From contig JBBROH010000002.1 of assembly GCA_038229595.1 (NCBI GenBank), positions 9,214-73,213 on the forward strand: a DNA stretch of 64,000 nt. Direction: 5' to 3'. Each line of letters starts with the position of its first letter. The stretch's first letter is position 1. The DNA is from Chloroflexia bacterium. Its GTDB lineage: Bacteria; Chloroflexota; Chloroflexia; QHBQ01. Below the pieces are notes generated by a model. It did no database searches and was not told where the DNA came from. It worked only from the letters and a program-made list of their open reading frames with translations. The translations under genes were made by a program, and so were the position numbers. Shown piece after piece: positions 11,677 to 41,170 of this stretch.

Positions 11677-11836
11677 TTTTCTCAACCCTTTCTCTGCACG
11701 ATACCCCGTCGCGGTCTCTGCGGCGGCTACGAAGCACTGCCATATTATACTACAAATCTTACATCTGGCCCAGGGAGGGGATGGGGTAGTTGTAGGGCCG
11801 TATGGCGCACAGCCACAAGCAAATGTGGTACGCGAA

Positions 11837-12283: not shown

Positions 12284-12374
12284 TGCTTACCCTCCTCGTT
12301 GAGTTCTGGCTGATCCTAACATCTTTGTGGCAATCTGGTCAAGTCCACGCGTGGGTTGGCAGCACACTCGCGGC

Positions 12375-13103: not shown

Positions 13104-13225
13104 CACCACGCCCCTTATCAACGAATGGAGAGGCAGCACACTCTTGCTGCGTCCCTGCCGAAAGCCGCCGCTTCAACCAGCGCAAGCCGCAAACCAGGCG
13201 CGCCCGCTACCGCCTACCTGCGGCC

Positions 13226-21595: not shown

Positions 21596-23164
21596 ATGCC
21601 GCTAATCAAGATGCTGGTGCGCCTCAGCGCGTTTTTGGGCAAGGAGGTAGCCGAGGTGCGGCGGCAATTGCGCCTGGTCTTTACCCTGGTGCTTGGCCCC
21701 TTCCTCATCCTCTTTATCTTCGGTATCGGCTACGTCAGCAAGCAGCAGAGCCTGACTACGATCATCGTGGGGCCGCCAGGAACGCAGGCTCGCAGTGCGG
21801 AGATCAAGAAGCAGTTTGCTGTTGAGCAACTGGACGTGCGCGAAGTGACGGAAGACCTAGGCCGGGCGATGAGCGAACTACATGACCGCCGGGTAGATGC
21901 GGTGGCGGTGATTCCCACCGACCCCTACAGCGACATCTTGGGCGGCAAGCAGGCCGAATTGCGGCTCAACGTCAACGAGATTGACCCGGTGAAGATCAAC
22001 ATCGTCTACTTCCTCACCTATGCCTACTCTAACGAACTGAACAAGCGCATCCTCGAAGCGGGCTTCAAGCAAGGGCAGGCGGGCCTTACCGACTTGCAGG
22101 GGCAGGTGGGCCAATTGCGCCAGGCGGTCAACCGCTTGCAAGCGGGCTTGCAGGCCAACGACGTGCAGGCGGTGACGAAGGAGAGTGGCGACCTGCTGAC
22201 TAGCAGCAACTCCGTCCTGGTCGTTCTCGCCGTCGCGGGCGGTGCCGTAAACAACGACCAGCTAGCAGCAGTGCCGATCAGCCCGGCAGGTCAGCAGAAG
22301 GTGGACAGCATCAACAAGGCGCAGACCGCTATCCGCCGCCTGAACGACAACGTGCAGGCGATCCGCAGCGATGCCCTGCGCGGCCAGGCGAGTCGGGAGC
22401 AGCAGGTGCAACGCCTCAAGCAGGTAGATGAAGACCTCGCTACCCTGGAAGCAACCACTGGGCAGATCACCAACATCGCCCCCGGTGTCCTGGTCTCCCC
22501 CTTCCGCGCCATCGTCAAGAATGAGGCCAGCAAGGAGGACAACTCCAACGGCGTTGAGATCAACTTCATCAACTACTACACCCCTGCCGTCCTTGCCCTG
22601 CTGCTCCAACACATCGCCGTCACCTTCGCAGCCCTCTCGCTAGTGCGTGAACGGACAATCGGCACGCTCGAACTGTTCCGCGTCGCCCCGATCCACGCCA
22701 CCGAAATCCTGGTCAGCAAGTACGTTGCCTACATCCTGTTCGTGGCCGTGGTCGGTGCTGCCCTGGTCGGTGCGCTAGTCAGCCCGCTGCTGGGCGTACC
22801 GTTCAAGGGCGACCCCGTCTGGTTCAGCCTGACCGCCCTCGCGCTGGTCTTCGCCAGCCTGGGCCTGGGCTTCTTCATCAGCCTAATCTCCCAAACCGAG
22901 TCGCAGGCGGTGCAGTTGTCGATGCTGGTGCTGCTCACCTCGGTCTTCTTCAGCGGCTTCTTCCTCTCGCTCAGCAGCTTCAACCAGTACGTGCAGTATG
23001 GAGCGCAAGGGCTACCGATCACTCACGGCATCCAGGGCTTCCAGCAGGTCATGCTGCGCGGCCAGCTACCGACCGACTACGTAATCGGCGCACTGACGAC
23101 GATGGGGCTGATCTTCTTCGTGATCAACTGGCTGCTGTTCCGCCGCGAGTTGGCTAAGGGCTAA
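21596..23164 (+). CDS. ABC-2 family permease with large extracytoplasmic coiled-coil domain
   Basis: N-terminal TM, about 280-aa soluble Gln/Ala-rich domain, five C-terminal TM helices. Translationally coupled to the ATPase. Confidence 0.7.
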   Translation: MPLIKMLVRLSAFLGKEVAEVRRQLRLVFTLVLGPFLILFIFGIGYVSKQQSLTTIIVGPPGTQARSAEIKKQFAVEQLDVREVTEDLGRAMSELHDRRVDAVAVIPTDPYSDILGGKQAELRLNVNEIDPVKINIVYFLTYAYSNELNKRILEAGFKQGQAGLTDLQGQVGQLRQAVNRLQAGLQANDVQAVTKESGDLLTSSNSVLVVLAVAGGAVNNDQLAAVPISPAGQQKVDSINKAQTAIRRLNDNVQAIRSDALRGQASREQQVQRLKQVDEDLATLEATTGQITNIAPGVLVSPFRAIVKNEASKEDNSNGVEINFINYYTPAVLALLLQHIAVTFAALSLVRERTIGTLELFRVAPIHATEILVSKYVAYILFVAVVGAALVGALVSPLLGVPFKGDPVWFSLTALALVFASLGLGFFISLISQTESQAVQLSMLVLLTSVFFSGFFLSLSSFNQYVQYGAQGLPITHGIQGFQQVMLRGQLPTDYVIGALTTMGLIFFVINWLLFRRELAKG

Positions 23165-25717
23165 CTCGCCTAGCAGGTTGAAGACCGCCTGGGCTGCCTG
23201 CGCCCGCGTCAGGGTGCTGCGTGGCGAGAAGGTGGTCGCGCTCGTCCCTTGCATCAGGCCGTGCAGCCGGGCCGCCTCTACCCAGCCGTAGAAGATATTG
23301 CTGGGCGACACGTCGCTGAAGCTGGGGCTGGCTGGCTGTTGGGGGCCGAAGCCAGCCGCAGCGGTTAGCATCTTCGCCATCTGCTCCCGCGTTACGCTGG
23401 CGTAGGGCTGGAAGTTGCCATCGCTGTAGCCACTAATCACCCCATGTGCGTAGGCGGTCTCCACGTAGCGGTAGAGGAGGTTGCTGGCTGGCACGTCGCG
23501 GAAGGTGGCAGTAGCAGGGTTGAGCAACGGCCAGCCCTGGGCCTGGGTCAGCATCTTGGCTAGCTCGTCCCGCCGCACCTGGGCGTTGGGCGCAAACAGG
23601 TTCGGCCCTGTCCCCTGCACCACCCCACGAGCATTGAGCCAACTGATCGCTGTCCAGGCCCAGTAACTATTTGGCACATCAATGTAAGTGTAGGTGGCCG
23701 CCTTCTGGCGGATCAGTTCGCGCTGCACCGCCCGCAGGTTGACCGCCCGTGGCTGGATGTTGGCTGCCGCCGCTTGCGCCGCCGCGACCCCCGCCGCCTG
23801 GCCCATTGCCGCCCGCACTGGCTCCATCCGCAACGCGCCAAAGCCGAGGTGGGTGGCCGAGGCCGCCAGCGGCACCAACAAACCATCCAACCTGAGTGGC
23901 ACGATTGCGCGGTATGGCACCTGGTAGGGCTGGGTGTTGCCCAACCACATATTGCCATCTGCGAACTGCCTGCCATTGCCGTCAGCGATCAGGCGCACGG
24001 TATGCGAGTCCAACGCGTACTGGCCGGTGGCGATGCTGTCGGTGAAGTAGCGGCTGACCGTGCTGCACCCCTGGCTGAGGCAGGCGTAATCGCGCTCGCT
24101 GAGGGTGTATTCGCCGATTAGCCGATTACCCTCGCGGATGTAGAGCAAGGGTGGCAGGCCGTCTAGTGTGCCGTACTCGTTGGTAGGCAGCCAGTCTTGG
24201 GCGGCAGGCACCCGCTGGCGCGCCCAGTAGACAAAGCTGAGGGCGTAGAGGCGGTGTTGCTGCTCAATAGCCGAGCGGCTGGCGGGGTTGGTCAGGTAGT
24301 TGTCCTCGCGCTCGACCGAGAGGTAGTTGCCGCCAGGGATATCGGCATAGTTCAGTTCGATCTTGTTGTTCGGCAGCAACCGCCGCCAGTTGAACCAGAT
24401 GTCGTTGAAGTAGCCGATGCTGTTTGCGCCATTGGTCGTGCTGAACTGCTGCACATACGCCTGGTAGAGGCTGTTCTGGTCGCCAGTGCGCCCCTGTGGA
24501 TCGGCGATGCTGGCGAAGGGGTGGGGCATAGTGCGGTTCGGCTGGTAGACGAGGGTCATCAGGTAGCTGTAGGCTTGCAAGCCGTAGTCGCCGTCGCCGA
24601 CCGACTCGCCGACCTGGGGCGGCACGAAGGTCTTGCCCGCGTCCAGTTCGTCAAAGGTGCGCGGGCGCAGAGGGAGCGGGGCAGCATTGTCGGTGCTGCT
24701 ACGTTCGCGGCCAAAGGCATAGTCCTGCCAGCGGGTGCCAGCGTCGGCCAGCACGTCGCCGCGGCTGGTCGCATCGATCACCACTTTGCCGTAGAGCGCA
24801 CTGCTCTGCCCCCCGCTGAGGACGTAGACCCCGCGCACGCTATTGCCCGCAGTGATCACCCCGCTGTAAGCGGTGTTGAGCAGCAGAGTGACAGTCAGCC
24901 CTTGCAGCAGTTGCATCATCTGGTTCTGGGCCACCAGTGGCTCATAGGTGAAGCCGTCGGTGGGGTAGTCATTCGCAGGATTGCAGACCAGGTTGTAGAC
25001 TTGCAGGTAGGCGGCGTGGGTCGGCGGGGTAGTAGCGGTGTTGGTGTACCAGGTGTAGAGCGAGTGGCCGCTATAATAGCTGCCGCCGCCCACTTTGGCC
25101 TGCATCGCCCCGGCCACCGTCGGCTGCTCGAAGTTAGTATCTACCAGCAGCGGCGGCGGGCTGTAGCATTGCAGTTGGCCGCTGTTGCGCTGGCTGCGGT
25201 AGTAGGCGCGCACCGCCAGGCGAAACTGCTCGAACAGGCCGCTGATCGCTGTCGGGTTGCCGTCGGTTGCGCCGAGGCCGCCCGCACTGACCATGCCGCC
25301 CAGCCAGCCGCTCTCCTCGACCAGTGCAACCCGCGCCCCCAGCCGGGCCGCAGCAACGGCAGCCGCCACCCCCGCCGAGGTACCGCCCACTACCACCACG
25401 TCGAACTGGTTGGCGGCGGGCGTAGCCGTTGGCGGCGGGACAGTTGTCGCAGTCGCAGTCAGGGTGGCGGTAGCGGTCACAGTCGCAGTCGCAGCCGCAG
25501 TCAGGGTGGCGGTAGCGGTAGCGGTCACAGTCGCAGTCGCAGTCAGGGTGGCGGTAGGGGTCAGAGACGTGGCTGGGGTGGGGGTTGCGCTGGGCGGGTC
25601 AGCGGTGGCCGTCGCGGTGGGGTTGCCACCGCTGGGGGCGGGCTGGCTCTGCGCCTGTGCGAGGGTGGGGAGCAGCAGGCTGGCGACGAGGATAAGCAGG
25701 AACAGGCGGTGCTTCAA
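23066..25717 (-). CDS. secreted FAD-dependent oxidoreductase (FAD_oxidored family) with Thr/Ala repeat linker and C-terminal SLH domains
   Basis: Signal peptide MKHRLFLLILVASLLLPTLAQA. Rossmann dinucleotide motif VVVVGGTSAGVAAAVAAARLGARVALVEESGWLGGM. About 550-aa catalytic region. SLH repeats FRDVPASNLLYRYVETAYAHGVISGY..., FSDVSPSNIFYGWVEAARLHGLMQG... Convergently overlaps the ABC-2 permease 3' end by 99 nt. Confidence 0.65.
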   Translation of the reverse strand: MKHRLFLLILVASLLLPTLAQAQSQPAPSGGNPTATATADPPSATPTPATSLTPTATLTATATVTATATATLTAAATATVTATATLTATATTVPPPTATPAANQFDVVVVGGTSAGVAAAVAAARLGARVALVEESGWLGGMVSAGGLGATDGNPTAISGLFEQFRLAVRAYYRSQRNSGQLQCYSPPPLLVDTNFEQPTVAGAMQAKVGGGSYYSGHSLYTWYTNTATTPPTHAAYLQVYNLVCNPANDYPTDGFTYEPLVAQNQMMQLLQGLTVTLLLNTAYSGVITAGNSVRGVYVLSGGQSSALYGKVVIDATSRGDVLADAGTRWQDYAFGRERSSTDNAAPLPLRPRTFDELDAGKTFVPPQVGESVGDGDYGLQAYSYLMTLVYQPNRTMPHPFASIADPQGRTGDQNSLYQAYVQQFSTTNGANSIGYFNDIWFNWRRLLPNNKIELNYADIPGGNYLSVEREDNYLTNPASRSAIEQQHRLYALSFVYWARQRVPAAQDWLPTNEYGTLDGLPPLLYIREGNRLIGEYTLSERDYACLSQGCSTVSRYFTDSIATGQYALDSHTVRLIADGNGRQFADGNMWLGNTQPYQVPYRAIVPLRLDGLLVPLAASATHLGFGALRMEPVRAAMGQAAGVAAAQAAAANIQPRAVNLRAVQRELIRQKAATYTYIDVPNSYWAWTAISWLNARGVVQGTGPNLFAPNAQVRRDELAKMLTQAQGWPLLNPATATFRDVPASNLLYRYVETAYAHGVISGYSDGNFQPYASVTREQMAKMLTAAAGFGPQQPASPSFSDVSPSNIFYGWVEAARLHGLMQGTSATTFSPRSTLTRAQAAQAVFNLLGELALSQLAAEQQPVDHEEDQPHRRQCADYVVGR
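25441..25570. repeat. short-period coding tandem repeats (gtcgcagtc/gcggtagcggtcaca units) encoding a (T-A-T-V/L)n linker
   Basis: Visible periodicity cgcagtcgcagtcagggtggcggtagcggtcacagt... repeated about 3 times. Translates to TATLTATATVTATATATLTAAATATVTATATLTATATT. Confidence 0.6.
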
Positions 25718-26098: not shown

Positions 26099-26377
26099 TC
26101 AATCCAGCCCGATTGACCAGATCGCTTCCATGTCCTTGCGCGAGTAGCACTGGAAGGCCACCATCGTGCGCGTGTTGGTAATCGCGCTGATCGCGGCAAA
26201 GCGGCTGGTCACCACGTCGGCCAACGCCTCGTACTCCTTCACCCGCACGATAGCCACCAGATCGTACTCGCCAGTGACAGAGTAGACCTCCTTCACCTCT
26301 GGGATCGCCAGCAGAGCCTCGGCGGTGGCCGGGATGCGCTGCCGCTCGGCTCCAATCATCACGATTGCGGTAATCAT
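26099..26377 (-). CDS. stand-alone Lrp/AsnC ligand-binding (RAM) domain protein
   Basis: 92 aa. [75 protein letters not shown] is the beta-alpha-beta-beta-alpha-beta RAM fold pattern with no DNA-binding domain. Start overlaps the kinase stop by 4 nt. Confidence 0.55.
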
Positions 26378-28932
26378 ACCGTTTCCTCCCTCTCGTTGGC
26401 AACCTTGAGCAACTCGTTGGCCCGGCTGCCGCCGTCCTCCGCACTGTGCGCCTCTTGCAGGGTGATCGGCCCCTCGGCACTGAGAACGCGGTCGCCGATC
26501 ATGCGCGGTGTGTCCCACTCCACTTGCGGGTGGGTCTCCACCTCCTCCTCGTCCAGCGGCAAGACCTCTGGCGGGCTAAACTGGCCCGGCTCTGGCTGCT
26601 CGCTGATCAGCGGCAAGGTGATAGTGAAGGTGCTACCCTCCCCTTCGCCCTTGCTGAAGACCGCCACGGTGCCGCCCATCAGGGTCGCCAGGCGGCGCGT
26701 GATCGCCAGACCGAGGCCAGTGCCACCGTACTGCCGGGTAGTAGAGCCGTCGGCTTGACGGAACTCCTCGAAGATCAGGGCGTACTTGTCCTGGGGGATG
26801 CCGATGCCAGTGTCGGTCACGGTTAGGGCGTAGAGTTCGTTGCTCACCCGCCGCGCCCGCACCGTCACGCTGCCAGTGTTGGTGAACTTGACGGCATTGG
26901 AGGCGAGATTAAGCAGGATTTGTTGCAGGCGGTCAGAGTCGCCGATCAGGGTGGGTGGGAGTTGGGGGTCAATATAGTGGCGCAGAGCCAGCTTCTTCTG
27001 CTGGGCCAGCGGCCCGACCGTGTTGAGGACGGTGAGGATCAGTTCGCGCACCGAGAACGGAGCAGTGACCAACTCAAAGCGACCCGCCTCAATCTTAGAG
27101 AGGTCCAGCACGTCCGTGATCAGGTTGAGCAAGGTGCCTGCGTTGCGCTGCACCCGACCCAGGCTGGTCTGCTGGCCCTCGTTCAACTCGCCAAACAGAC
27201 CATCCAGCAGCATATCAACGTAGCCAATAATCGAGTTGAGCGGGGTACGCAGTTCGTGGCTGATAGTGGAGAGAAACTCGGTCTTGAGGCGGCTGATCGA
27301 GAGCAACTGCTCGTTCGCGCTCCGCAAGTCGGTGTAGATGCGGGCCGTCTCCAACACGGCGGCGGCCTGGTTGGTGAACAACACCAACATCTGCTCATCA
27401 TCGTCGCTGAACACCCGCCGCTCGCTGTCGTCCAACACATCCAGCACGCCGATCAGCTTGCCGCGCTTGTTAAGCAGCGGGCTGGCGATCACGGCGGTGA
27501 AAGGGGAGTCGGCGTAGCGGGCTGCCTTCCCCTCCCAGGTGCGGTAGTTGTTGACCCTGAGCGGCTGGCGGCTGGCAGCCACCTGCCCGGCCAACCCCTC
27601 ACCAACTGCCAGGTAGGTGCCGCAGTAATCGCGGTCTAGATTGTAGGAGGTAACGCATTCCAGCCGGTGCTGACTGCTATCATAGAGGTAGATCGCTGCC
27701 CCACGCGCCGAGAGCAGGCTAACCGAGTGCAGGGTGACAGTATCGAGCAGATTTTGCAGTTCGCGCTGGCGGGTGATCTCCAACGAGGTGCGATAGATCA
27801 ACTCCAACTGCTGCGCCCTTTTCTCTGCGTCGCTAAGTTGCGCGAGGCTGTAGAGCGCGCCGACCAGTTGGCCGCCAATGATGGCGAATACATCGAGGTC
27901 GTCAGCATCCGCCTGCGCCAACAGGGTCGAGCCGACGATCAGCAAGCCAGCCAACCTGCCGCCGCCAAGCAGCGGGGTGATGATCGCGCTGCCCAGGTGC
28001 AGTTGCTTGAGCAGGGGCAGGTAGAAGTCGTTTTGTTCGCTGCTGCAAGCTACTGGGCGGCCCTCGTCGGTCAGGGCGGCCCACAACGGTTGGTCGGGGT
28101 CGAAGGGGAGAGCAAGGCTGGGGGTGATGCGCCGTTCGGCCAGCAAACCAGAGCGGGCGACCAACTGCTCCCCCTCCACCAGCATGACCAAGCCGAACTC
28201 GTAGCCGAACTCGCCGGTGACGACCGCCACGATGTGATCGAGCAGAGCCTGGCGGTCGAGGGTGCCGCTGATTTCGGTGCCAACCCGGTGCATGGCAAAG
28301 AGGCCCGCCAGCCGCCTACCCAGGCGGTCGCGGGAGTGGCTAACCTCGGCCTCGGTTGCGCTCACCTGCTCCAAATGGCTCTCTGCCTCCTGCAACTGCG
28401 CCTCAAGGTGCTGGTACTGGTCGCGCAGATGGGTATAGCGGCGGGTGTAGTTGAGGGTAGCGGCGATCAGGCGGGCCGCTGGCTTGACCTTCTGCAACTC
28501 CTCCTGCCCCAGGGTGCCGGGCTTGCGGCTCTCCAGGTTGAGGACACCGATCACCTCACCGTCCACCACCAGGGGCAAAGCCAGTTCGCCCATCGAAGTG
28601 GGTGGGCCAATCTTGCCGTACACGGCATCCAGGTTGAAGTATTCGGGGTCGCGGCCAGGGTGGGTGATGATCGCGGCCCGCCCGCTCTGGGCCACTCGCT
28701 GCACGATCCCGCGACCAGGCGGCAAGCTGAGGCCAACTGGATTGTAGCTGATCGGGCGGGCCGACCAGTAGGCGACAAACATCAGGTCGTCGCTCTCTGG
28801 CTGGCGCAGCAACACAGAAGCCTGATCGAACTGCACGATCTCGGCCAGGCTGGCTAGCATGGTAGTCAGATCGCGTTCGACCGATAGTTCGCGGTCGCTA
28901 CTTGCGGGTTGGGCGGTGGCTGCGCTGGTCAT
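26374..28932 (-). CDS. multi-GAF sensor histidine kinase
   Basis: 852 aa. At least three GAF-like modules. Coiled-coil. His[21 protein letters not shown]. HATPase_c ([11 protein letters not shown]..., [38 protein letters not shown]). No receiver domain. Confidence 0.8.
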
Positions 28933-28943
28933 GGCTGGCTACT

Positions 28944-29381
28944 CTAGTTGCTAGGTGCGCTGGGTTGGGGCGGCAGGGTCGCGGGCGAAGAATGGTACTC
29001 GGCCAACTGCTGCTCAACCATACTGACGAGGGCGTTGATCGTGATCGGCTTGGTCAGGTAGGCACTGCACCCGGCTTGCAGAGCCAGGTCACGGTCGTCG
29101 CTGAGAACGTTGGCGGTGAGGGCGACGATGGGGCGGCTGACGAACTCTGGCAAGGCACGGATCATCCGCGCCGCTTGCCAGCCGTCAAGGATGGGCAGCG
29201 AGAGGTCCATCAAGATCAGGTCGGGTTGGGGGCCGTCTTTGCCAGCGGCCATGCAGATGTTGACTGCTTCGCGCCCGTTGACCGCTTCGATCACCCGGTA
29301 GCCGCGCAAGGTAAGTAGTATCTTTACCATGTCGCGGCTATCGAAATTGTCTTCTACCACCAGGATCAACTCACCGGCCAT
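28944..29381 (-). CDS. single-domain (CheY-like) response regulator receiver
   Basis: LILVVEDNFDSRDMV...DLILMDLSLPILDGWQ...ALTANVLSDDRDLALQAGCSAYLTKPI. No output domain. Start taken at MAGELILVV (29381). Confidence 0.8.
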   Translation of the reverse strand: MAGELILVVEDNFDSRDMVKILLTLRGYRVIEAVNGREAVNICMAAGKDGPQPDLILMDLSLPILDGWQAARMIRALPEFVSRPIVALTANVLSDDRDLALQAGCSAYLTKPITINALVSMVEQQLAEYHSSPATLPPQPSAPSN

Positions 29382-29486
29382 TAGCTGCTCCCTTGCCGCA
29401 CCAGATAACGGCCCACCCATATTTTGGTTCGCAAGGCTATTATAACACAGTAGCAAGGTAGATAGGAGAAACAGGCTAGCCGCTCG

Positions 29487-29672
29487 TCACTCGTCCTCCT
29501 CGTAGGGGCAGTTGCGGCAGCCGTTGCCACAGCAGTAGCCGCGCTCAAGCAGGAACTCGCGGCAGAGCGCGCCATCAGCATCGAAGGGATAGCTGGCAGG
29601 TAGCTCCTGCTCTGCTGCTGGCGGGCTGGCGGGCTGGTTGCTCGGCTCAGGCGACGGCTTTGGCATAGTCAT
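29487..29672 (-). CDS. small Cys-rich protein (CC-x3-C-x2-C motif)
   Basis: 61 aa. MTMPKPSPEPSNQPASPPAAEQELPASYPFDADGALCREFLLERGYCCGNGCRNCPYEEDE. Overlaps the upstream gene's 3' end by 26 nt. Coding status uncertain. Confidence 0.35.
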   Translation of the reverse strand: MTMPKPSPEPSNQPASPPAAEQELPASYPFDADGALCREFLLERGYCCGNGCRNCPYEEDE

Positions 29673-30453
29673 CTTCCTTGAGCGTAGTCAACCGCGTGTA
29701 GTAGAAGCGACGTTGGAAGCGGTAGAGTATCTTCAGCGTCGCCCCACCCAGGGTCAGCACCAGCAGCAGGTTGAGGGCGGATCGCCAGAGATCGTAGGCG
29801 AACGAGGTAGCGAAGTAGAAGATGGTGAAGCGGCTGACCAGTTCGCCAACCCGCTCCAGGCCACTGCTGCTGAGGTTAGTTGCGTCGGCAGAGGCGGGCC
29901 AGAACCAGAGGTTGAGCAAGGCACCGTAGAGCAAGCCCCAGCCCAGCCCCAGCAGGCCGAGCGCAGTCAGGTTGAGGGCCATGTTAGCCTGCCAGCGACG
30001 CAGCAACCGACCGAGTAGCCCCGCACTTGCGCCTAGCCAGGCGGCAGCCAGCATCTGGTAAGGCAGCCAGGGGCCAAAGCCGCCAGTCACTATCGCCGAA
30101 ACGAAGATGGTCAGCGCGCCAAAGAGGAAGCCGAAACCCGCCCCGAACACGTAGCCGCCGACCAGCAGCAGGAAGAAGATCGGGGAGGCTCCGCCAAAGG
30201 TAGGCAGTAGCCGCAACGCGCCGTTCAGGGCCGCCAGCACCGCCAGCAGAGCGACACCCTTCGCGTCCAACTCTTGCCCCTGCACGGCACCGAGGCCAAC
30301 CACCAGCACCAGCACTCCGAGCAGCAGGGTGGCAGCCAGGGGCGGCACTGCACTGGCGAAGAAGGGCCAGAGTAGCATCGCCAGCCCCAACAGCGTGCTG
30401 AGCAGCAGGGCCAGGTTAGCGATCAGGCGGCCTTGCCCCCACTCATCCCGCAT
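29647..30453 (-). CDS. polytopic membrane protein, candidate ECF-transporter substrate-capture (S) component
   Basis: About 268 aa with six or seven TM helices. Translationally coupled to the EcfAA' gene (start overlaps its stop). No recognisable soluble domain. Assignment is by context only. Confidence 0.4.
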   Translation of the reverse strand: MRDEWGQGRLIANLALLLSTLLGLAMLLWPFFASAVPPLAATLLLGVLVLVVGLGAVQGQELDAKGVALLAVLAALNGALRLLPTFGGASPIFFLLLVGGYVFGAGFGFLFGALTIFVSAIVTGGFGPWLPYQMLAAAWLGASAGLLGRLLRRWQANMALNLTALGLLGLGWGLLYGALLNLWFWPASADATNLSSSGLERVGELVSRFTIFYFATSFAYDLWRSALNLLLVLTLGGATLKILYRFQRRFYYTRLTTLKEDDYAKAVA

Positions 30454-32086
30454 CTTGCACCCCCACATCTTGCCCCGCCATCGCCTCGGCCACCGTCAGG
30501 AACCGTCCGTTGGTCAGCTTGCCGATCTGCGAGGAGAAGATCAGCGACTCGCTGAGGACGGCGCGGGTTGGGCCGTCCACCGCGATCTCGCCCGCCGCCA
30601 GTAGGGCCACCCGGTCAGCGACTTCGGCGACCAACTCTACGTCGTGGGTGACAAGCACTACCGCCCGGCCCGCCGCCCGCAACCAGCGCAGGTAAGCGAC
30701 CAATGCCCCCTTGCTCTCGTAATCCAGCCCGCGAGTTGGCTCATCCAACAGCACCAGGGCAGGGTCAGCGACGAGCAGGGCGGCAATCGCCACCCGCTGC
30801 TGCTGGCCGATGCTAAGGTCACGCGGGTAGCAGTCGGCCAGCCCGCTGAGGCCGAGCGCAGTCAACAAATCGGCGATCCGACCCTCGTCTACCGCCAGCT
30901 TGTGGCCGCGCAGGGTGAAGCGCAGCTCGTCGGCTACCGTGTCGGCAAAGAGCAGGCTAGAGGGGTTCTGCGGCACGTAGCCAACCTGCCGAGCAATCGC
31001 GCTGGGGTCAAGCCCAGCCACGCTGCGCCCCAGCACCTGAACCGCGCCCCGCTGCGGACGCAGCAGCCCGATCAGCAGCTTGAGCAGCGTAGTCTTGCCG
31101 CTGCCATTGCGCCCCAAAATCGCCAGCACCTCGCCCCCCCGAATGTCGAAGCTGACCCCACGCAACACTTCCCGCCTACCGTAACCAAACCACACTCCGC
31201 GCAAGTCCGCACTGCCTTCCTTCGCGGCGGGCGGGGTAGGACTGGCTGGCACAGCCTCCTCCCCTCGTGCGCGGGTAGGCAGGGTGGCGGTGAGTGAGCG
31301 GGCGAACGGCCTCGCTTCGCGCACAGTGAGCGGCAGCGGCTGCCAACCTAGCCGCTTCGCCAGGGTCAGCAACGGCGGGGTGAGCGGCACCTGGGCCAGA
31401 GCCTCGCGGGGCGGCCCGTCGGCAACGATGCGCCCAGCCGCCATGTACAGCAGGCGATCAGCATACTGCACCACCCGCTCCAGCCGATGTTCAGAGAGGA
31501 TGATCGTCATGCCCAGGTCGCTGTTCAGCTTTTGCAGCAAGGTCAGCACCTCCTCCGCACTCTGCGGATCGAGTTGCGAAGTCGGCTCGTCCAGCACCAG
31601 GATGGCGGGCTGCATCGCCAGAGCCGCCGCAATCGCCAGCCGCTGACGCTCACCCCCACTCAGGCTGCTGATCGGACGAGCGCGTAGCTGGTCGAGGTCG
31701 AGTTGATGCAGCAACTCCTCTACCCGCCGCCGCATCAGCGCGGGGTCAAGGCCGAGGTTCTCCATGCCGAAAGCGACCTCGCCCGCCACCTCCTCCGTCA
31801 CCGCCTGCGCCTCTGGGTCCTGGAAGACGAAGCCGACCCTGCCGCCCAACTGCTGCGGCTGCACAGTGAGGGTGTCCACGCCGTCTACCAGCACCCGCCC
31901 GCCAAACTTGCCGCCATAGAAGTGCGGCACCAGCCCAGCGATAGCCCGCAGCAGGGTGGACTTGCCCGCCCCGCTGCCGCCAACCAGCAGCACGAACGCC
32001 CCCTCTGGCACGCTGAGGTCAACCTCGTGCAGGGCAAAGGTGGTGGCGGTGGGGTAGCAGTAACTGAGCTTTTCGAGCTTGATCAT
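30443..32086 (-). CDS. energy-coupling-factor transporter ATPase, fused tandem EcfA-EcfA' (two ABC domains)
   Basis: Two complete ABC cassettes. Walker A GGSGAGKST / GRNGSGKTT. Signatures LSGGERQRLAIAAAL / LSIGQQQRVAIAALL. Walker B LVLDEPTSQLD / LLDEPTRGLD. Start at MIKLEKLSYCYP (32086) abuts the cyclase gene stop. Confidence 0.85.
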   Translation of the reverse strand: MIKLEKLSYCYPTATTFALHEVDLSVPEGAFVLLVGGSGAGKSTLLRAIAGLVPHFYGGKFGGRVLVDGVDTLTVQPQQLGGRVGFVFQDPEAQAVTEEVAGEVAFGMENLGLDPALMRRRVEELLHQLDLDQLRARPISSLSGGERQRLAIAAALAMQPAILVLDEPTSQLDPQSAEEVLTLLQKLNSDLGMTIILSEHRLERVVQYADRLLYMAAGRIVADGPPREALAQVPLTPPLLTLAKRLGWQPLPLTVREARPFARSLTATLPTRARGEEAVPASPTPPAAKEGSADLRGVWFGYGRREVLRGVSFDIRGGEVLAILGRNGSGKTTLLKLLIGLLRPQRGAVQVLGRSVAGLDPSAIARQVGYVPQNPSSLLFADTVADELRFTLRGHKLAVDEGRIADLLTALGLSGLADCYPRDLSIGQQQRVAIAALLVADPALVLLDEPTRGLDYESKGALVAYLRWLRAAGRAVVLVTHDVELVAEVADRVALLAAGEIAVDGPTRAVLSESLIFSSQIGKLTNGRFLTVAEAMAGQDVGVQDAG

Positions 32087-32087
32087 T

Positions 32088-32741
32088 TCACTCCAAGATG
32101 GCGAAGGCGCGCACTGGGAAGCTCGTACCCCCTTCGATGGCGGGCGGCACGGCGAAGAAACGGCTGCCTTCAGCCGGTAGCTGCTCAAGGCTACAGAGGT
32201 GTTCGATGATCGGGATGCTCGCACCGAGCAAGATGGTGTGAGCAGGGCGCGATTTGTCTGTCATAGCGTCCAGGTTGGCGCAATCTATGCCGACCAGGGC
32301 CGCGCCTGCCGCCACCAATGCTTCACAGGCGGCAGCGGTGAGGTAGGGGCCGGAGCGGAAGTAGTCCCCGCCCCAGCGTTGCGCCCAGCCGCTATGCACC
32401 AACACCGCCTTGCCGCGCACTGCCAGCCCAACGAAAGCCTCTGGCCCAACCGCCCCCTCCAGGGCGACAGCAACTACGATGGCGGGCAGGTTCGCCAGCC
32501 TGTCCAGAGGCAGCTTCGCCAAATCCGCAAGGCTGGCATGGCGGTGGAAGGGAGCATCCACATAGGTACCAGTGTTGCCCGCGATCTCGTAGGTAGCAAT
32601 CTGGAAGGTCGTACCGGGGGCATAGTTGCCACGGGCCACGCTCTGCTCGTGCGTAAAGAGGATGTGGAAGCGGGGTTCTGGCACGCCAGGGTAGGAGGGC
32701 ATGGCAGGGCCGAGCGGGTGACTGAGGTCGATCAGGGTCAT
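32088..32741 (-). CDS. cyclase-family protein (kynurenine-formamidase-like metal hydrolase fold, PF04199-like)
   Basis: MTLIDLSHPLGPAMPSYPGVPEP...GNTGTYVDAPFHRH matches the HxGTHxDAPxH-type motif (first His replaced). About 217 aa. Embedded between the EcfT and EcfAA' genes. Confidence 0.6.
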   Translation of the reverse strand: MTLIDLSHPLGPAMPSYPGVPEPRFHILFTHEQSVARGNYAPGTTFQIATYEIAGNTGTYVDAPFHRHASLADLAKLPLDRLANLPAIVVAVALEGAVGPEAFVGLAVRGKAVLVHSGWAQRWGGDYFRSGPYLTAAACEALVAAGAALVGIDCANLDAMTDKSRPAHTILLGASIPIIEHLCSLEQLPAEGSRFFAVPPAIEGGTSFPVRAFAILE

Positions 32742-34552
32742 GGTTCGCTCCTTTGCAGCACGCTGGCTGCCGTCTGGTCGGGCTGGCGGGCGTGGATTAG
32801 ACTGACCAGAGCAGGGGGTAGCAGCAGCGCGCTGGTCAGCAAGGCGGGTAGGAGGTCGAAGGGCGGCCACTGCAACTGGGGGTAGGGGTAGTAGTCCAGT
32901 GGCAGGCTGCTGAACAGGCGCAGCAGGGCGAAGCTGGTGGCTACTGCCAGCCCGACCGCCAGCAGCACCCGGTCACGTGGCCGCCAGACAAGGTGGCGGT
33001 AGGCAGTGCGCCCCTTGAAGCCGGGCGGCCCATAGCCCCACGCTCGCGTTGCCAACGCCTCGGCCAACTGGCTAGCCTGCTCCAGGCTGAGGAGCAGGAG
33101 GGGGGCGACCAGGGGTAGGAGGTTGCGCGCCCGCACCCGATAGCCACGCAACTGCTGGGCCTGCTGCACGTTGCGCGCCGCCGCCACTGTCTGTGGCACA
33201 AACAGCACTGCGATGCTGGCGACCAGGCCCAGCCGCCGCAGCGGGCCGGGGATCAGGCCCAGCACCTCTCGGTGGCTAACCACCCGATTGAAGGTGGCAA
33301 AGACGGCCAGCAGGGTGAGGATGGTCAGCCCCTTGCTTGCGCCCCAGGCCAGCCCCTCGGCGGTAAGGATGCCGCCAATTGCGGGCCACTCTCGCGGGAG
33401 GGTGAGCAAAACAGTACGCCCAGCGTGCGCGGTCAAGAAGTTGAACAGGGTAATGAAGGCGAAGCTGACCACGCCCAGGCGTAGCAGCACGCTGCCCTGC
33501 TGCTGCCCCTCTAGCGGGGCGGCGCAGGCCCGATAGACGATCAGGCTAGTCAGCAGCAGCATAGCCAGATAGTAGGGGTTGCTGCCCACCGCCAGCACCG
33601 CCGCTAGCAGCCACCCCAGCCAGGCCCTGCTGTTCAACGGCTCCCCTGTTGCACCGCGCCCGACCAGCAGCAGCAGCCCGAGTAGCAAGATGATGGCGAC
33701 CGCCAGCCCCTCTGCACCACGGCCTGCGCCTGGTGGTTGGCTCGTAGCCACCAGCAGCACGTCTGCCGCCCCCGGCGTGGTCGTTGCGGTGACAACCAGG
33801 GTGGCGGTAAGCGTCGCTGCTGGGGTCTCGCTCGGTGGTGGTGGAGGCGTGGCGGTTGCTTGCGGCGTGGCGGTGGCTGCCTGCGCTGTTGTTGTGGCTA
33901 GCGTAGCCTGCCCAACAATCGGGCTGGGGCTGGGCATAGCGGTGGCTGGGGCTGGCCTAGTAGTAGCCGGGGCCGTGCGTGTCGGCGTACTGCTGGGGCG
34001 CGGCAGGCGGGTGGGGGCGTGCGTAGCAGTCGGCGGCGGGGGCTGGTAGAGGTCGGCGAAGCTGTAGAGCGGTGGTTGCTCCTTGCCACCCCAGGCCCAG
34101 CTCTCTACCGCTCCGTCGCGCACCCGATAGTCGCCTGCGCCAGAGTTGGCTAGCCGCCACTGGGCGGGCGGGCCAGCGTCGAGGTGGAAGTACCGCCAGA
34201 ACTTGCACTCTGCGCCCTGGCATTGGCAGAAGGCCGACTGGCCGGGGGGGTGGCAGCCCTCACCCTGGAGCGCGGCCACCGCGCCACCCAGACCGAGGTA
34301 GTCTATCTCTGCCTCCAGACTGGCCCGCTCAAGCAGTTCCAGCCCGCTGATGCTCTCTGTGCTGAAAGCCACCACCCTGGTCACTACGCGCCCATCTCCA
34401 TGCCGCACCACCAGAGCCGCGTGATGCAGCGGCGGGCCAACAACCGGTTGCGCGGCAGCAGCATTGCCCACAAAGAGGATCAGGGCTAGCAGGCAGAGCA
34501 GCCCTCCCCCTGCCCACTTGGGCGGCAGGCGAGAGGAACGGAATGAGGACAT
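32738..34552 (-). CDS. DUF4430 (transcobalamin beta-domain-like) extracytoplasmic domain fused to ECF transporter T component (EcfT/CbiQ)
   Basis: N-terminal signal/TM (GGLLCLLALILFVGNAAAA). DUF4430-like segment (ISGLELLERASLEAEIDYLGLGGAVAALQGEG...FWRYFHLDAGPPAQWRLANSGAGDYRVRDGAVESWAWG). About 100-aa Pro/Thr/Ala linker. C-terminal CbiQ-type membrane domain (ARNVQQAQQLRGYRVRARNL... conserved EcfT loop). Start uncertain: 34552 or 34627. Confidence 0.65.
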   Translation of the reverse strand: MSSFRSSRLPPKWAGGGLLCLLALILFVGNAAAAQPVVGPPLHHAALVVRHGDGRVVTRVVAFSTESISGLELLERASLEAEIDYLGLGGAVAALQGEGCHPPGQSAFCQCQGAECKFWRYFHLDAGPPAQWRLANSGAGDYRVRDGAVESWAWGGKEQPPLYSFADLYQPPPPTATHAPTRLPRPSSTPTRTAPATTRPAPATAMPSPSPIVGQATLATTTAQAATATPQATATPPPPPSETPAATLTATLVVTATTTPGAADVLLVATSQPPGAGRGAEGLAVAIILLLGLLLLVGRGATGEPLNSRAWLGWLLAAVLAVGSNPYYLAMLLLTSLIVYRACAAPLEGQQQGSVLLRLGVVSFAFITLFNFLTAHAGRTVLLTLPREWPAIGGILTAEGLAWGASKGLTILTLLAVFATFNRVVSHREVLGLIPGPLRRLGLVASIAVLFVPQTVAAARNVQQAQQLRGYRVRARNLLPLVAPLLLLSLEQASQLAEALATRAWGYGPPGFKGRTAYRHLVWRPRDRVLLAVGLAVATSFALLRLFSSLPLDYYPYPQLQWPPFDLLPALLTSALLLPPALVSLIHARQPDQTAASVLQRSEP

Positions 34553-34638
34553 CCCCACCCTGCCCTCCCCAGCGAGCAGGGAGGGTTCAGGGGTAGAAGC
34601 GGGCCTGATCGTGCCAGGGAGGTGCAAGCGGGTGCTTT

Positions 34639-35784
34639 CTAGCTGCGCCGGGGGCGGAGCAGCAAGCCGCCCACCAGCCCGCCGAGCGCGAGGGCGAACA
34701 AGGTCAGCAGCCAGCCGTAGTCGCTGCTACCGGTGCGCGGTAGGCGGGGGATGCTAGGCGGGGTAGCGACCATGCTACTGTCGTTGGCGACGGCGGGGGT
34801 GTCGCTCACCGCTGCGCTGCCTGCCGCGTCGGGGATCGCAATTGGCAGGGTGGCATAGCGCAGGGCGGGGATCGCCTGCAAGGTCGCCAGCACGTTATCT
34901 TCGCCGCTTGCGCCCTGGAAGCGGAAGGCACCGTCGGCGTTCTGCAACTTGAGCAGGGCAGCTAGCGGGTCATTGCCAGCCGCACTCTTGAAGCCAGCGG
35001 GGTCGAGGTTAGCGGCCAGCAAACCCTGGATTACGTAGGCGGTCGAGTTCGCGTCGGTGTCGGTGCCATACTGACTGGGCTTCTGGTAGGGGAAGCCGCC
35101 GTCGTCGTTCTGCTGCGTCTTGAGGTAGGCAACCGCCTGGGTGATCGCCGCGTCGTCGGCAGCCACGCCATTGGCGGCCAGGGTCTGGATCACCAGCGCA
35201 GTGGTGTTGCTGTCCCCCTCACCGGCTGCGCCCAACCCCGCGAAGGCAAAGCTGCCATCGGCAAGCTGGAGCTTCTTCAGCGCGTCAATCGCCGCTTGGG
35301 GTGCGCCGATGCGACTTTGTAGCAGACAATATGCCTGGTCGAGAGTGGTCTTGCCGAAGGTGGCGGTCGTCTTGTCGTAAGCCTTGCTGATCGCTTCGAA
35401 GACCGCCTTCGGCAGGTAGCCACGCCCAGCGAGGGCTACCTTGCAGGCGGCGGCGGGCGAACTGGCGGTGGCCCCGTTCGCCACCAAGTAAGCGAGCAGC
35501 GACTTGCCGCCCTTCGCCACGCCAGTCAACTCTGCCCCACTGGCGGCGAAAGCAAAGGCGGCATCAGTGGATTGGCCGAGGGTGGACGGCCCCTTGAGCG
35601 CAGGGCCAAAGCCGCCGTCGGCTTGTTGTGCGCCGCGCAGCCAGCTAGCCGCCGTTTGCGCGGCGGTGGTTGCGGCGGCAGGGGCAGCGGCAGGGGCGGC
35701 GGGGGCGGCGGCAGCGGGCGGGCCGAAGCCGATCAACATGGTCAGTACCAGCAGCAGGCTACTCAACTTCTTGGCGTAGGACAT
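34639..35784 (-). CDS. secreted alpha/alpha-toroid (prenyltransferase/squalene-cyclase-repeat) protein with C-terminal LPXTG sortase anchor; candidate cobalamin-binding alpha-domain analogue
   Basis: Signal peptide MSYAKKLSSLLLVLTMLIGFGPPAAAAP after an AAAGGAG RBS. Repeated Q..DGGF-type motifs (QQADGGFG, QLADGSFAF, QQNDDGGFPYQ, QNADGAFRFQ). C-terminal LPRTG, then a hydrophobic helix and RPRRS. Confidence 0.6.
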   Translation of the reverse strand: MSYAKKLSSLLLVLTMLIGFGPPAAAAPAAPAAAPAAATTAAQTAASWLRGAQQADGGFGPALKGPSTLGQSTDAAFAFAASGAELTGVAKGGKSLLAYLVANGATASSPAAACKVALAGRGYLPKAVFEAISKAYDKTTATFGKTTLDQAYCLLQSRIGAPQAAIDALKKLQLADGSFAFAGLGAAGEGDSNTTALVIQTLAANGVAADDAAITQAVAYLKTQQNDDGGFPYQKPSQYGTDTDANSTAYVIQGLLAANLDPAGFKSAAGNDPLAALLKLQNADGAFRFQGASGEDNVLATLQAIPALRYATLPIAIPDAAGSAAVSDTPAVANDSSMVATPPSIPRLPRTGSSDYGWLLTLFALALGGLVGGLLLRPRRS

Positions 35785-35810
35785 GGACGCTCCTTTTCTT
35801 CCCCGTAGGG

Positions 35811-35846
35811 CCAACAAAAGACCCCCGCCCGAAAGGGGCGAAGGTA
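35811..35846 (-). terminator. candidate attenuator/expression-platform terminator of the cobalamin riboswitch
   Basis: On the minus strand, CGCCC-cuuuc-GGGCG hairpin followed by GGGGUCUUUUGUUGG. Lies between the aptamer and the RBS. Confidence 0.4.
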
Positions 35847-35869
35847 GCGTGGCCCTGCGGCGCGGAGGG

Positions 35870-36030
35870 TAGAGTCGCCCCAGCAGGTAGCTCACACATA
35901 CCCTCTCTCGCGAAGGGTGGTCGTGTCTGCGTTGAATGGGCGATCTGGCTCACCGCGAATAGCGATTACAGTAGCGGGACTGCGCCGGGTTTGCACCGGA
36001 CTTCCCCCAGGTTCAACGCTTATTAACATC
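35870..36030 (-). ncRNA. cobalamin (AdoCbl-type) riboswitch aptamer
   Basis: Minus-strand leader reads ...GUUGAACCUGGGGGAAGUCCGGUGCAAACCCGGCGCAGUCCCGCUACUGUAAUCGC...GAGCCAGAUCGCC...GAGCUACCUGCUGG. The conserved cobalamin-riboswitch core (GGUG.AAUCCGG.GCGG.CCCGCCACUGU) is present with a single C-to-U change. Confidence 0.7.
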
Positions 36031-36036
36031 TTTCGC

Positions 36037-36065
36037 AGTATAACAGGCGGCAGCGGGCTTGTCAA
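36037..36065 (-). promoter_or_regulatory. sigma70-type promoter (TTGACA-17-TATACT) driving the riboswitch operon
   Basis: Minus strand TTGACAagcccgctgccgcctgtTATACT immediately downstream of the preceding gene's stop. Predicted TSS about 36030. Confidence 0.5.
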
Positions 36066-36073
36066 ACAGGGGA

Positions 36074-36520
36074 CTAGCGGCGGTTGAGCCAGCGGCGGAT
36101 GGTGCTGGCGATGCGCTCGAAGGGAGTTTCGGGCTGCTCAAATTGGATCGGCTGGCCGCGCCACCGCTTCTCGCCGGGGGGTAGAGACGTGCGCCCACTC
36201 TGGCTGAAGTAGTAGATCACTGCGCCGATCAGGGCCAACACCGCCAGCGGCCTGAGCAGCAAGGTGATGCGGCTGGGGTCAATCGGGGAGAGGATGATCA
36301 CTAGCAGGGTAAAGATCGCCACAGCGGTGAGGATGCTACCAGGGGTCCAGCGCACCGAGCGGCGGTTCGCTTTCGGCTTTGCGGGGTTGGCGCGGTTGGG
36401 CGGCAAGGGGCGGGCTGTCTCCTGCGGGCGCGGAGCGGCACCGTTTACCTTGCCCCATCCTGCTTCCTCGGCCTTCCGCAGAATATCCTCGATCTGTTTT
36501 TCGTAACGCTGCTGTGGCAT
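36074..36520 (-). CDS. hypothetical membrane protein (two TM helices, basic/proline-rich loop)
   Basis: MPQQRYEKQIEDILRKAEEAGW... then TM helices ILTAVAIFTLLVIILS / LAVLALIGAVIYYF. Start at 36520 follows an AGGGGGA RBS. Confidence 0.45.
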   Translation of the reverse strand: MPQQRYEKQIEDILRKAEEAGWGKVNGAAPRPQETARPLPPNRANPAKPKANRRSVRWTPGSILTAVAIFTLLVIILSPIDPSRITLLLRPLAVLALIGAVIYYFSQSGRTSLPPGEKRWRGQPIQFEQPETPFERIASTIRRWLNRR

Positions 36521-36578
36521 AGCGTGATCCCCCTGTCCCTTGAGCGACATTGCTCCCCGCTAATACGATCCTTGCCTA

Positions 36579-40708: not shown

Positions 40709-40711
40709 AGC

Positions 40712-40999
40712 CTAAAGGAACTTGGCTGGCGTAGCGGTGATAAAGCCTGGAGCCTTGATCCGCTTGCCGATAGTAACAATAATGTTTACTCCTGCTGCGG
40801 TGGCCGAGGCGGGCTGCATCGCGTCTTCCAGGTCGTCAATAGTCAGCGACACTGCTTGCCTCCAGGTTTGGAGATCGGTAGGGACAGCAGCGGTGTCGAT
40901 CAGCTTGTGCCTGAGGCTGTACCGCTCGTCGGCAGACAGGCGTAGGGCTGCGGCCTCGATCTGCTTATAGCGAAGATTGGTGGGCTGAGTGCTGGTCAC
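40712..40999 (-). CDS. hypothetical 95-aa protein at the head of the SNF2-SWIM operon
   Basis: MTSTQPTNLRYKQIEAAALRLSADERYSLRHKLIDTAAVPTD... Stop is 3 nt before the SNF2 start. No recognisable domain. Confidence 0.4.
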   Translation of the reverse strand: MTSTQPTNLRYKQIEAAALRLSADERYSLRHKLIDTAAVPTDLQTWRQAVSLTIDDLEDAMQPASATAAGVNIIVTIGKRIKAPGFITATPAKFL

Positions 41000-41085
41000 A
41001 GCGGCTACTCCTTTTGCGGGCTGAAGATAGCATTTTTGGTGGCTGCTGCTTGCCTTTCCTCATATTATACCGTACCAAAGCGGGC

Positions 41086-41114
41086 TTGACAAAGCCGCCC
41101 GTATTGGTCAAAAT
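41086..41114 (+). promoter_or_regulatory. candidate sigma70 promoter (TTGACA-17-CAAAAT) upstream of deoC
   Basis: gcTTGACAaagccgcccgtattggtCAAAATg about 60 nt upstream of the deoC start. Confidence 0.3.
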
Positions 41115-41170
41115 GTTGGTTAGTGAGCAGTGCCACATGAGCAGCAATCAGGGCCGCATGAGGGGTAACT

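Follow-up and report, generated by a model that had tools for sequence, protein, structure and literature searches.

A 64-kb stretch of contig JBBROH010000002.1 from an uncultured Chloroflexota bacterium (the whole stretch is called the window below) carries on its minus strand a cobalamin riboswitch in front of an operon of six genes. The RNA is a genuine but ordinary member of the cobalamin riboswitch family. We consider it likely, with a probability of about 0.8, that it is an adenosylcobalamin (AdoCbl)-type riboswitch which is transcribed from its own sigma-70-type promoter and, in response to B12, switches a corrinoid-uptake operon OFF. The computational analysis established the RNA family, the promoter and terminator signals, the protein families and folds encoded by the operon and the linkage between riboswitch and operon.

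To search for known RNA families, Rfam 15 was scanned with cmscan over the whole window on both strands, using the gathering score as cut-off. The scan placed the family RF01482, 'AdoCbl (Cobalamin/B12) riboswitch aptamer', at 36031..35890 (-). This match scores 57.7 bits, the gathering score of the family being 50, and has an E-value of 5.4e-8 over the whole window; it is full-length, covering model positions 1-149 of 149. A second family of clan CL00101, overlapping and lower-scoring, was likewise above its own gathering score. The initial annotation, which had been made from the letters alone, quoted the leader sequence and its core, both of which are present where it placed them, and made its call of a cobalamin riboswitch depend on a covariance match above the gathering score; this match, together with the pairing and the compensation in the outer stem described below, bears out the call. 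It had labelled RF01482 'AdoCbl-variant', which is incorrect, the Rfam name being 'AdoCbl'; the other label belongs to RF01689. In a permissive scan of all 64 kb (E <= 1) the only match besides the riboswitch was a meaningless one to mir-641 (E = 0.48), and the intergenic regions 11908..12374 and 40709..41170 (~460 nucleotides (nt) each) gave no Rfam match at this threshold. As far as known RNA families are concerned, the initial annotation was thus right to call this the only long structured leader of the window. The parts of the aptamer, with pairs taken from the Rfam alignment after its transfer onto the window sequence, are as follows.

35890..36031, minus strand: AdoCbl-type cobalamin riboswitch aptamer (RF01482 covariance model)
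36017..35962, minus strand: conserved 55-nt core of the aptamer, sequence read at these coordinates
36018..36012/35936..35930 and UG/CA 36009..36008/35938..35937, minus strand: outer stem of the aptamer (RF01482 pair list)
36001..35996/35988..35984, minus strand: aptamer hairpin (RF01482 pair list)
35981..35979/35975..35973, minus strand: P5 with loop CCC (RF01482 pair list)
35971..35969/35947..35945, with a short extension 35965..35962/35956..35952, minus strand: P6 (RF01482 pair list)
35925..35913/35905..35893, minus strand: P13 hairpin, the proposed switch helix (RF01482 pair list)

The conserved blocks GGUG..AA.CCGG, GUCCCGC.ACUGU and AG.CAG were all found in the aptamer by consensus alignment, and the outer stem closes a junction of three hairpins (P4, P5 and P6 with its extension). 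Of the 37 modelled pairs that are realised, 33 are canonical and the other four non-canonical, and three pairs of the RF01482 model, all in the outer stem, are deleted. The C-to-U change in the GCCACUG block which the initial annotation had pointed out is present, but it is not a defect, as the opposite strand of P5 carries a G-to-A change that offsets it; the consensus G-C pair has thus become A-U by changes on both strands, and A-U is found in all of the eight leaders aligned below. Of the two segments that had been put forward for 3' pairing, AGCCAG indeed contains the P6 3' strand (CUG/CAG pairing), whereas GAGCUACCUGC (35892..35882) lies outside the aptamer, within the expression platform. 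The 3' end of the aptamer is located 106 nt upstream of the first ATG of the operon, on the same strand.

The first gene of this operon (gene 1) encodes an alpha/alpha-toroid protein, and its homologues were used to collect related loci: 11 on genome contigs, 24 on metagenome contigs (20 of which were scanned) and six contigs encoding proteins of 46-52% identity (P0011-P0016). A cobalamin riboswitch at the gathering score was present in 10 of the 11 genome loci, 13 of the 20 metagenome loci and all six intermediate loci, i.e. in 29 of 37, and in these 29 loci it is nearly always placed immediately upstream of the open reading frame for the toroid homologue. Most hosts belong to the Chloroflexota and Anaerolineae; some Actinomycetes and one metagenome-assembled genome (MAG) of Dormibacter are also represented. 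Many of the fetched loci show the same order of riboswitch, toroid, SLBB domain, EcfT, EcfA-A' and S component, the last four being discussed with the operon genes below. The nearest relative, locus L001 (Chloroflexota MAG, JAYUUN010000040), has the same operon, a gene 1 protein that is 93% identical and a leader that is 97% identical. In the actinomycete locus L009 a riboswitch (6638..6772) was observed that lies downstream of the genes for toroid-SLBB and DUF5522 and precedes a 440-amino-acid open reading frame without Pfam family; this position implies that a different first gene is under its control there.

For comparison of the leaders, those of the window, of L001 and of six relatives at about 50% identity (L036-L042) were aligned. 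All eight have the -10 box, the aptamer, P13 and a hairpin with U-tract in common, and the P13 hairpin has the loop UUCGCGAG or UUCGAGCG throughout. When the aptamer structure was projected onto this alignment, 86.6% of the cells were paired, compared with 29-45% when the partners were slid against each other. Four pairs of the outer stem have changed in both partners, and only 2 of 500 shuffles attained the covariation score. The core helices are invariant across the eight leaders and hence uninformative on covariation in either direction.

A decayed or chance resemblance without regulatory function might be suspected from a score that is just 7.7 bits above the gathering score of RF01482, and from the four non-canonical and three deleted pairs. 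It is, however, contradicted by the E-value of 5e-8 over the whole window, by a leader identity of 97% to L001, the relative with the 93% identical gene 1 protein, by the compensatory changes in the outer stem and by the conserved position before the same operon in 29 of 37 loci, so that we regard such a resemblance as hardly conceivable.

The ligand of the riboswitch is predicted to be cobalamin, more specifically AdoCbl. It is a known feature of class I and class II riboswitches that peripheral elements around P6 help to set the selectivity for the upper ligand, and it is here that the window departs from its relatives. Its P6 extension (35952..35965), like that of L001, is ~23 nt shorter than in the six relatives at about 50% identity (columns ~148-180 of alignment A5), whose leaders score best with the general family RF00174 and not with RF01482; with the short extension of the window and L001, the best Rfam model thus becomes RF01482 instead of RF00174. 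On sequence grounds, the shorter extension might influence which form of cobalamin is sensed. Both observations could be taken to suggest that the aptamer senses another cobalamin (methyl-, hydroxo- or aquo-cobalamin) or accepts the various forms without distinction. This we hold to be unlikely, as the best match, and a full-length one, is to RF01482, the consensus P6 extension of which has about the size seen in the window.

The signals around the aptamer were identified by scans for promoters and terminators and by folding.

36037..36065, minus strand: sigma-70-type promoter with -35 box TTGACA (36065..36060), 17-nt spacer and extended -10 box TGT-TATACT (36045..36037; hexamer 36042..36037) (consensus scan)
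35905..35893, minus strand: 3' strand of P13, GAGGGUAUGUGUG, able to pair with the P13 5' strand or with 35851..35840 (model pairs and nascent-transcript folds)
35840..35851, minus strand: candidate antiterminator partner strand CACGCUACCUUC, similar to the P13 5' strand and sharing 6 nt with the start of the terminator stem (folding)
35845..35821, minus strand: intrinsic terminator, stem ACCUUCGCCC, loop CUUUC, stem GGGCGGGGGU, with 10 base pairs (bp), 7 of them G-C (terminator scan)
35820..35811, minus strand: U-tract of the terminator, CUUUUGUUGG (terminator scan)
35796..35790, minus strand: ribosome-binding site (RBS) AAAGGAG, followed by a 5-nt spacer and the ATG at 35784 (sequence)

The promoter matches the consensus at 11 of 12 positions and has a TG before the -10 box; it was the one site found, where 0.1 were expected from shuffled sequences, and its -10 box is invariant as T-A-T-A-x-T across the eight leaders. 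Transcription probably starts near 36030, ~7 nt past the -10 box, which would give a transcribed leader of ~246 nt. The 290 nt assigned to the leader in the initial annotation are instead the length of the intergenic region, from the upstream stop at 36074 to the ATG at 35784, whereas its AAAGGAG is found as described. The promoter and attenuator it proposed were both recovered by the scans, and neither the -10 box nor the hairpin with U-tract is missing from any of the eight leaders.

The energy of the terminator is -18.2 kcal/mol in the window and ranges from -14.5 to -21.3 kcal/mol over the eight leaders. In each of them a hairpin followed by a U-tract lies between aptamer and RBS, but the sequences of the stems differ between lineages. 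In detail, the window's stem ACCUUCGCCC/GGGCGGGGGU is unrelated to that of the relatives at 50% identity (CCUCUACC.../...GGUAGAGG), and the stem of L038 is CCUCUGCC/GGCAGGGG. That the structure is kept while the sequence of its stem is replaced is good evidence for transcription attenuation.

In E. coli, btuB is controlled mainly by RBS sequestration, and the leader in the window could likewise be mainly a translational switch, in which the RBS becomes sequestered upon ligand binding and the hairpin with U-tract plays an incidental or secondary part. Indeed, in the minimum free energy (MFE) fold of the full-length leader the RBS region GGAGCGUCC (35793..35785) is paired with GGGCG-A-CUCU (35880..35871). 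This pairing is, however, one pair short in L001 (C->A at 35789), the spacers between terminator and RBS differ and are longer in the relatives, and a strong hairpin with U-tract precedes the RBS in 8 of 8 leaders despite complete turnover of the stem, which argues for selection on termination. A mainly translational mechanism is therefore distinctly unlikely in our view. Dual control by termination and translation is possible, with the sequestration of the RBS suggested by a single-sequence fold.

Downstream of the riboswitch, six genes of ~6.3 kb in total (35784..29487, minus strand) follow one another with overlapping or abutting start and stop codons.

34639..35784, minus strand: gene 1, 381 amino acids, with signal peptide, alpha/alpha-toroid (prenyltransferase / squalene-cyclase-like), LPRTG motif, hydrophobic segment and RPRRS tail
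32738..34552, minus strand: gene 2, 604 amino acids from the ATG at 34552, with signal peptide, transcobalamin-beta-like (SLBB) domain, Pro/Thr-rich linker, anchoring transmembrane segment and EcfT (CbiQ) domain
32088..32741, minus strand: gene 3, 217 amino acids, a cytoplasmic protein of the cyclase / arylformamidase family (PF04199, 72.4 bits) without signal peptide
30443..32086, minus strand: gene 4, 547 amino acids, a fused EcfA-EcfA' ATPase (TIGR04520, 369 bits with cut-off 315; TIGR04521, 358.5 bits with cut-off 330; two ABC_tran domains)
29647..30453, minus strand: gene 5, 268 amino acids (273 from the ATG at 30468), an energy-coupling factor (ECF) S component (PF12822, 37.9 bits with cut-off 30.7)
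29487..29672, minus strand: gene 6, 61 amino acids, a cysteine-rich DUF5522 protein with the motif CCGNGCRNCPY (PF17653, 38.7 bits with cut-off 25)

Taken together, EcfT, two EcfA domains and an S component, all of them above curated cut-offs, form a complete ECF transporter with a dedicated, operon-encoded module (group I). The EcfT domain of gene 2 is recognized by PF02361 with 38.3 bits (cut-off 25). The start of gene 5 overlaps the end of gene 4, gene 6 begins within gene 5 and shares 26 nt with its end, and the ATG of gene 3, which sits between EcfT and EcfA, overlaps the stop codon of gene 2 (ATGA), indicating translational coupling.

The toroid of gene 1 is recognized by PF13243 and PF00432 above their cut-offs. 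Its designation as a cell-wall-anchored protein in the initial annotation is well founded: the protein has the signal peptide, LPRTG, hydrophobic stretch and RPRRS tail, its homologues have similar anchors, and JGI names two of them 'LPXTG-motif cell wall-anchored protein'. The family profile found only cyclases and prenyltransferases when searched against the PDB. A precomputed match to PF01122 (eukaryotic cobalamin-binding) is present in ~10 among the 120 homologues of gene 1 listed, and two homologues from the collected loci show sub-threshold PF01122 matches. Gene 1 is thus compatible with the role of a toroid partner, and is predicted to be a wall-anchored corrinoid-capture protein.

The N-terminal domain of gene 2 (~130 residues, cysteine-rich) has no Pfam-A match even at E <= 10. 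Its nine database homologues (P0001-P0009) all belong to PF28005 'SCO2322' and are standalone proteins with a C-terminal transmembrane segment. An AlphaFold2 (AF2) model of the domain was obtained with a pLDDT of 79, and the top 16 PDB matches of this model in Foldseek are beta domains of transcobalamin, haptocorrin or intrinsic factor, or 3u7z, the DUF4430 representative. As the sequence search was silent, the identity of the domain comes solely from structure prediction and fold search. The resemblance of the beta half to transcobalamin is specific, with only cobalamin binders and DUF4430 at the top of the fold search, whereas that of the alpha half, to judge from the profile search with the gene 1 family, is not. 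Five or six conserved cysteines were observed in the beta-like domain which do not appear in the description of classical DUF4430. The Pro/Thr linker that follows comprises ~110 residues. The fusion of beta domain and EcfT is also found in L036 (4869..6677) and L039 (3033..4610), and in other lineages the beta-like domain is either standalone and membrane-anchored (P0001-P0009) or fused to a toroid (L009, L019, L023).

Gene 3 and gene 6 differ in their distribution. The former occurs only in the relatives at 93% identity and is absent from L036, L038 and L039; speculatively, it might encode a metal-dependent amidohydrolase acting on corrinoids. DUF5522 and the beta-domain-EcfT fusion are both retained in the relatives at 50% identity, and DUF5522 was found in the same position in L001 (~13113..13298), L036 (9204..9449) and L038 (12109..12303), i.e. 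in every locus of the close clade that is long enough. In the actinomycete locus L009 it adjoins the toroid-SLBB genes (~6472..6546). There may thus be a link between DUF5522 and B12 that has so far gone unrecognised; no literature was found on DUF5522 or on SCO2321-2324.

The initial annotation had predicted a B12-acquisition operon, and this is supported by the complete dedicated ECF transporter, the transcobalamin-beta-like fold and the link to a riboswitch in 29 of 37 loci. The operon most likely captures and imports B12. An import of cobalt, or of another tetrapyrrole or corrinoid precursor, in which case the riboswitch would govern the metal supply for B12 synthesis, might be considered since CbiQ and CbiO, as the families are called in Pfam and NCBIfam, are names from cobalt transport, since cobalamin riboswitches control cobalt transporters too (PMC3766115), and since ECF-CbrT itself carries cobinamide as well (PMC5997447). 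We regard this as very unlikely, for neither CbiM nor CbiN is encoded in the operon, its S component belongs to PF12822, and it opens with two extracellular domains of the type that sandwiches B12 in transcobalamin; moreover, no B12-biosynthesis gene was found within the 64-kb window, the rest of which consists of housekeeping and envelope genes. An uptake of cobinamide or other cobamides beside B12 is possible and would leave the overall picture unchanged.

On the basis of these features we propose that the OFF switch, which would likely act mainly through termination, works as follows. When B12 is replete, the aptamer would bind the coenzyme and prevent P13 (35925..35893) from opening, presumably by way of the contact between the loops L5 and L13 that is typical of the cobalamin riboswitch family. 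With P13 closed, the terminator at 35845..35821 and its U-tract would form and RNA polymerase would halt before the RBS, and transcripts that are read through may additionally have their RBS paired with 35880..35871. When B12 is scarce, the 3' strand of P13 (35905..35893) would pair with 35851..35840, whereby the first 6 nt of the terminator stem would be occupied and read-through allowed. The gene 1 toroid and the gene 2 beta-like domain, the latter tethered to EcfT, would then jointly capture extracellular corrinoid for the dedicated importer, which would consist of EcfT, EcfA-A' and the S component.

The folding calculations are consistent with this proposal in the lineage of the window. 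In stepwise folding, 35851..35840 pairs with the P13 3' strand once it has been transcribed, so that P13 is opened and six nucleotides of the terminator stem are occupied. At the decision length of 220 nt the antiterminated state has -89.4 kcal/mol and the state with P13 and the full terminator -85.6 kcal/mol, a gap of 3.8 kcal/mol which, according to the model, is small enough for a ligand-stabilised P13 to reverse. The antiterminator pairing comprises 12 bp in the window and L001; in the window the duplex (-17.2 kcal/mol) was matched by 28 of 1000 shuffles and in L001 by 8 of 1000. The sole change in the L001 terminator stem, U->C at 35842 (U-G to C-G), fits and strengthens both alternative helices. 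Among the eight leaders, five (window, L001, L038, L040 and L042) have an MFE fold in which the 5' strand of the terminator is paired to the 3' strand of P13 when the transcript ends before the terminator's own 3' strand. A B12-activated (ON) switch was also considered and rejected, the ligand-free fold in the window being the antiterminated one and the genes being uptake genes.

Several observations weigh against the proposed switch and against its assignment to B12 import. No convincing complementarity between L5 (CCC) and L13, as expected for the kissing loop that the initial annotation proposed to confirm by folding, could be identified from the sequence. The antiterminator duplex is no better than shuffled sequences in the six relatives at 50% identity, and the P13 3' strand is left unused in L036, L039 and L041 when the transcript ends before the terminator 3' strand. 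The fold energies of the whole leader are unremarkable for its G+C content (z -1.4 and -1.9). Furthermore, the leaders of L001, L012 and L013 are 97% identical to that of the window and identical to each other, and therefore provide no covariation test of the window's expression platform. As for the transporter, a phmmer search with gene 5 against all PDB chain sequences (E <= 10) found only unrelated membrane proteins and no similarity to CbrT. The structure of ECF-CbrT has been deposited, so its chains should be among these sequences. Given these results for the relatives, the detailed switch model rests mainly on the window's own lineage, and it is for this lineage only that we propose the antiterminator, with moderate confidence.

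Comparison with known systems places the riboswitch and the operon in familiar surroundings. The prototypes of RF01482 are the aptamers of Thermoanaerobacter tengcongensis and Symbiobacterium thermophilum, the crystal structures of which were solved in 2012. The window shares with this family the core sequence, the helices, a similarly sized P6 extension and the P13 hairpin at the 3' side, and differs from it by the A-U pair in place of G-C in P5, the three deleted pairs of the outer stem and an L5-L13 complementarity that is not evident. With the RF00174 riboswitches of the E. coli btuB and Salmonella cob leaders it has in common the clan, the core and, as predicted here, the logic of repressing genes for B12 uptake or synthesis; in contrast to btuB with its RBS sequestration, an intrinsic terminator precedes the RBS, and the P6 extension is shorter than in its cousins of the RF00174 type.

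The only characterised B12 importer of the ECF type is ECF-CbrT from Lactobacillus delbrueckii, whose module is shared with seven other S components (PMC5997447). The system in the window is likewise an ABC importer of the ECF type that is associated with B12 and made up of EcfT, two EcfA domains and an S component, and it may work like ECF-CbrT. However, its module is a dedicated one with its genes in the operon, extracellular capture proteins are not part of ECF-CbrT, and the S component of the window is without detectable similarity to any solved chain and is thus not a detectable member of the CbrT family.

The proteins at the head of the operon resemble those described by Burroughs, Balaji, Iyer and Aravind in 2007, who reported bacterial transcobalamin-like SLBB domains that are often fused to alpha/alpha toroids (PMC1796856). 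Those SLBB/toroid proteins have signal peptides, Gram-positive anchors and operons with CbiO-like and CbiQ-like genes, and were predicted to be B12 scavengers (PMC1796856). Signal peptide, Gram-positive-type anchor, the toroid, the transcobalamin-beta-like domain and the CbiQ/CbiO-like operon genes all recur in the window. There, however, the sortase-anchored toroid and the EcfT-fused beta-like domain are on separate polypeptides, and the beta-like domain, which is too diverged for Pfam DUF4430, falls in PF28005 'SCO2322'. When compared with human transcobalamin, intrinsic factor and haptocorrin, the two capture proteins are reminiscent of transcobalamin with its two halves. The link to a riboswitch is absent from the 2007 study, in which the word 'riboswitch' occurs 0 times (PMC1796856), while B12 transporters under cobalamin riboswitches, Chloroflexi included, were catalogued by Sun et al. 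in 2013 (PMC3766115). A literature search for the combination of cobalamin riboswitch, ECF transporter and prenyltransferase found nothing relevant.

These comparisons allow a more far-reaching suggestion, which is tentative and which we ourselves find rather doubtful, namely that the operon encodes a split bacterial transcobalamin relay. The wall-linked toroid would capture the corrinoid, the EcfT-fused beta half would receive it or close over it, and an S component unrelated to CbrT would take delivery, with DUF5522 (CCxxGCxxCPY) and the cyclase / amidohydrolase-family protein as cytoplasmic corrinoid handlers (e.g. in ligand exchange or cobamide remodelling). We know of no earlier proposal of a corrinoid-handling role for DUF5522 or for the cyclase-family protein.

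Some further observations concern the surroundings of the operon and the rest of the window. The gene upstream of the riboswitch (36074..36550, minus strand) encodes a protein of 158 amino acids with a C-terminal membrane segment and without Pfam family. A small gene that is apparently syntenic, as judged by position only, is present in L036 (2575..2997), L038 (5868..6314) and L039 (1019..1441) and encodes 140-148 amino acids, again without Pfam family; in the relatives at 50% identity a rhodanese gene lies beyond it on the opposite strand. On the other side of the operon, the gap of ~29400..29486 (minus strand) between gene 6 and a pair of genes for a response regulator and a GAF-histidine-kinase (29456..26374) contains an extended -10 box, TGTTATAAT, resembling that of the riboswitch promoter, TGTTATACT; no full promoter or terminator was called in this gap.

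Large secreted proteins with S-layer-homology (SLH) domains and Pro/Thr/Ala-rich linkers are encoded at 8302..10077 (-), 10177..11907 (-), 23066..25717 (-) and 46741..51357 (+). The set includes two cupredoxin proteins, an FAD oxidoreductase and a protein of 1538 amino acids with LTD, nuclease/phosphatase, CHRD and DUF4397 domains. Judging from these genes and from gene 1, the organism appears to use SLH as well as LPXTG-type anchoring.

Riboswitch and B12-scavenging operon are each of a kind that had been known or predicted before (2007), and the findings do not overturn current understanding. What is unstudied is the split transcobalamin-like arrangement, the S component outside the CbrT family, the DUF5522 gene and the lineage-specific cyclase gene. 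The riboswitch marks an operon of ~6.3 kb as probably B12-regulated in an uncultured lineage of the Chloroflexota, and thereby gives a likely function to products that are labelled 'prenyltransferase/squalene oxidase repeat protein', 'cobalt transport protein' or 'hypothetical'. The wider interest lies in its cargo, a predicted ECF-type B12 importer with a non-CbrT S component, capture proteins that echo transcobalamin and two partners without studied function; since the riboswitch ties these genes to B12, they become directly testable.

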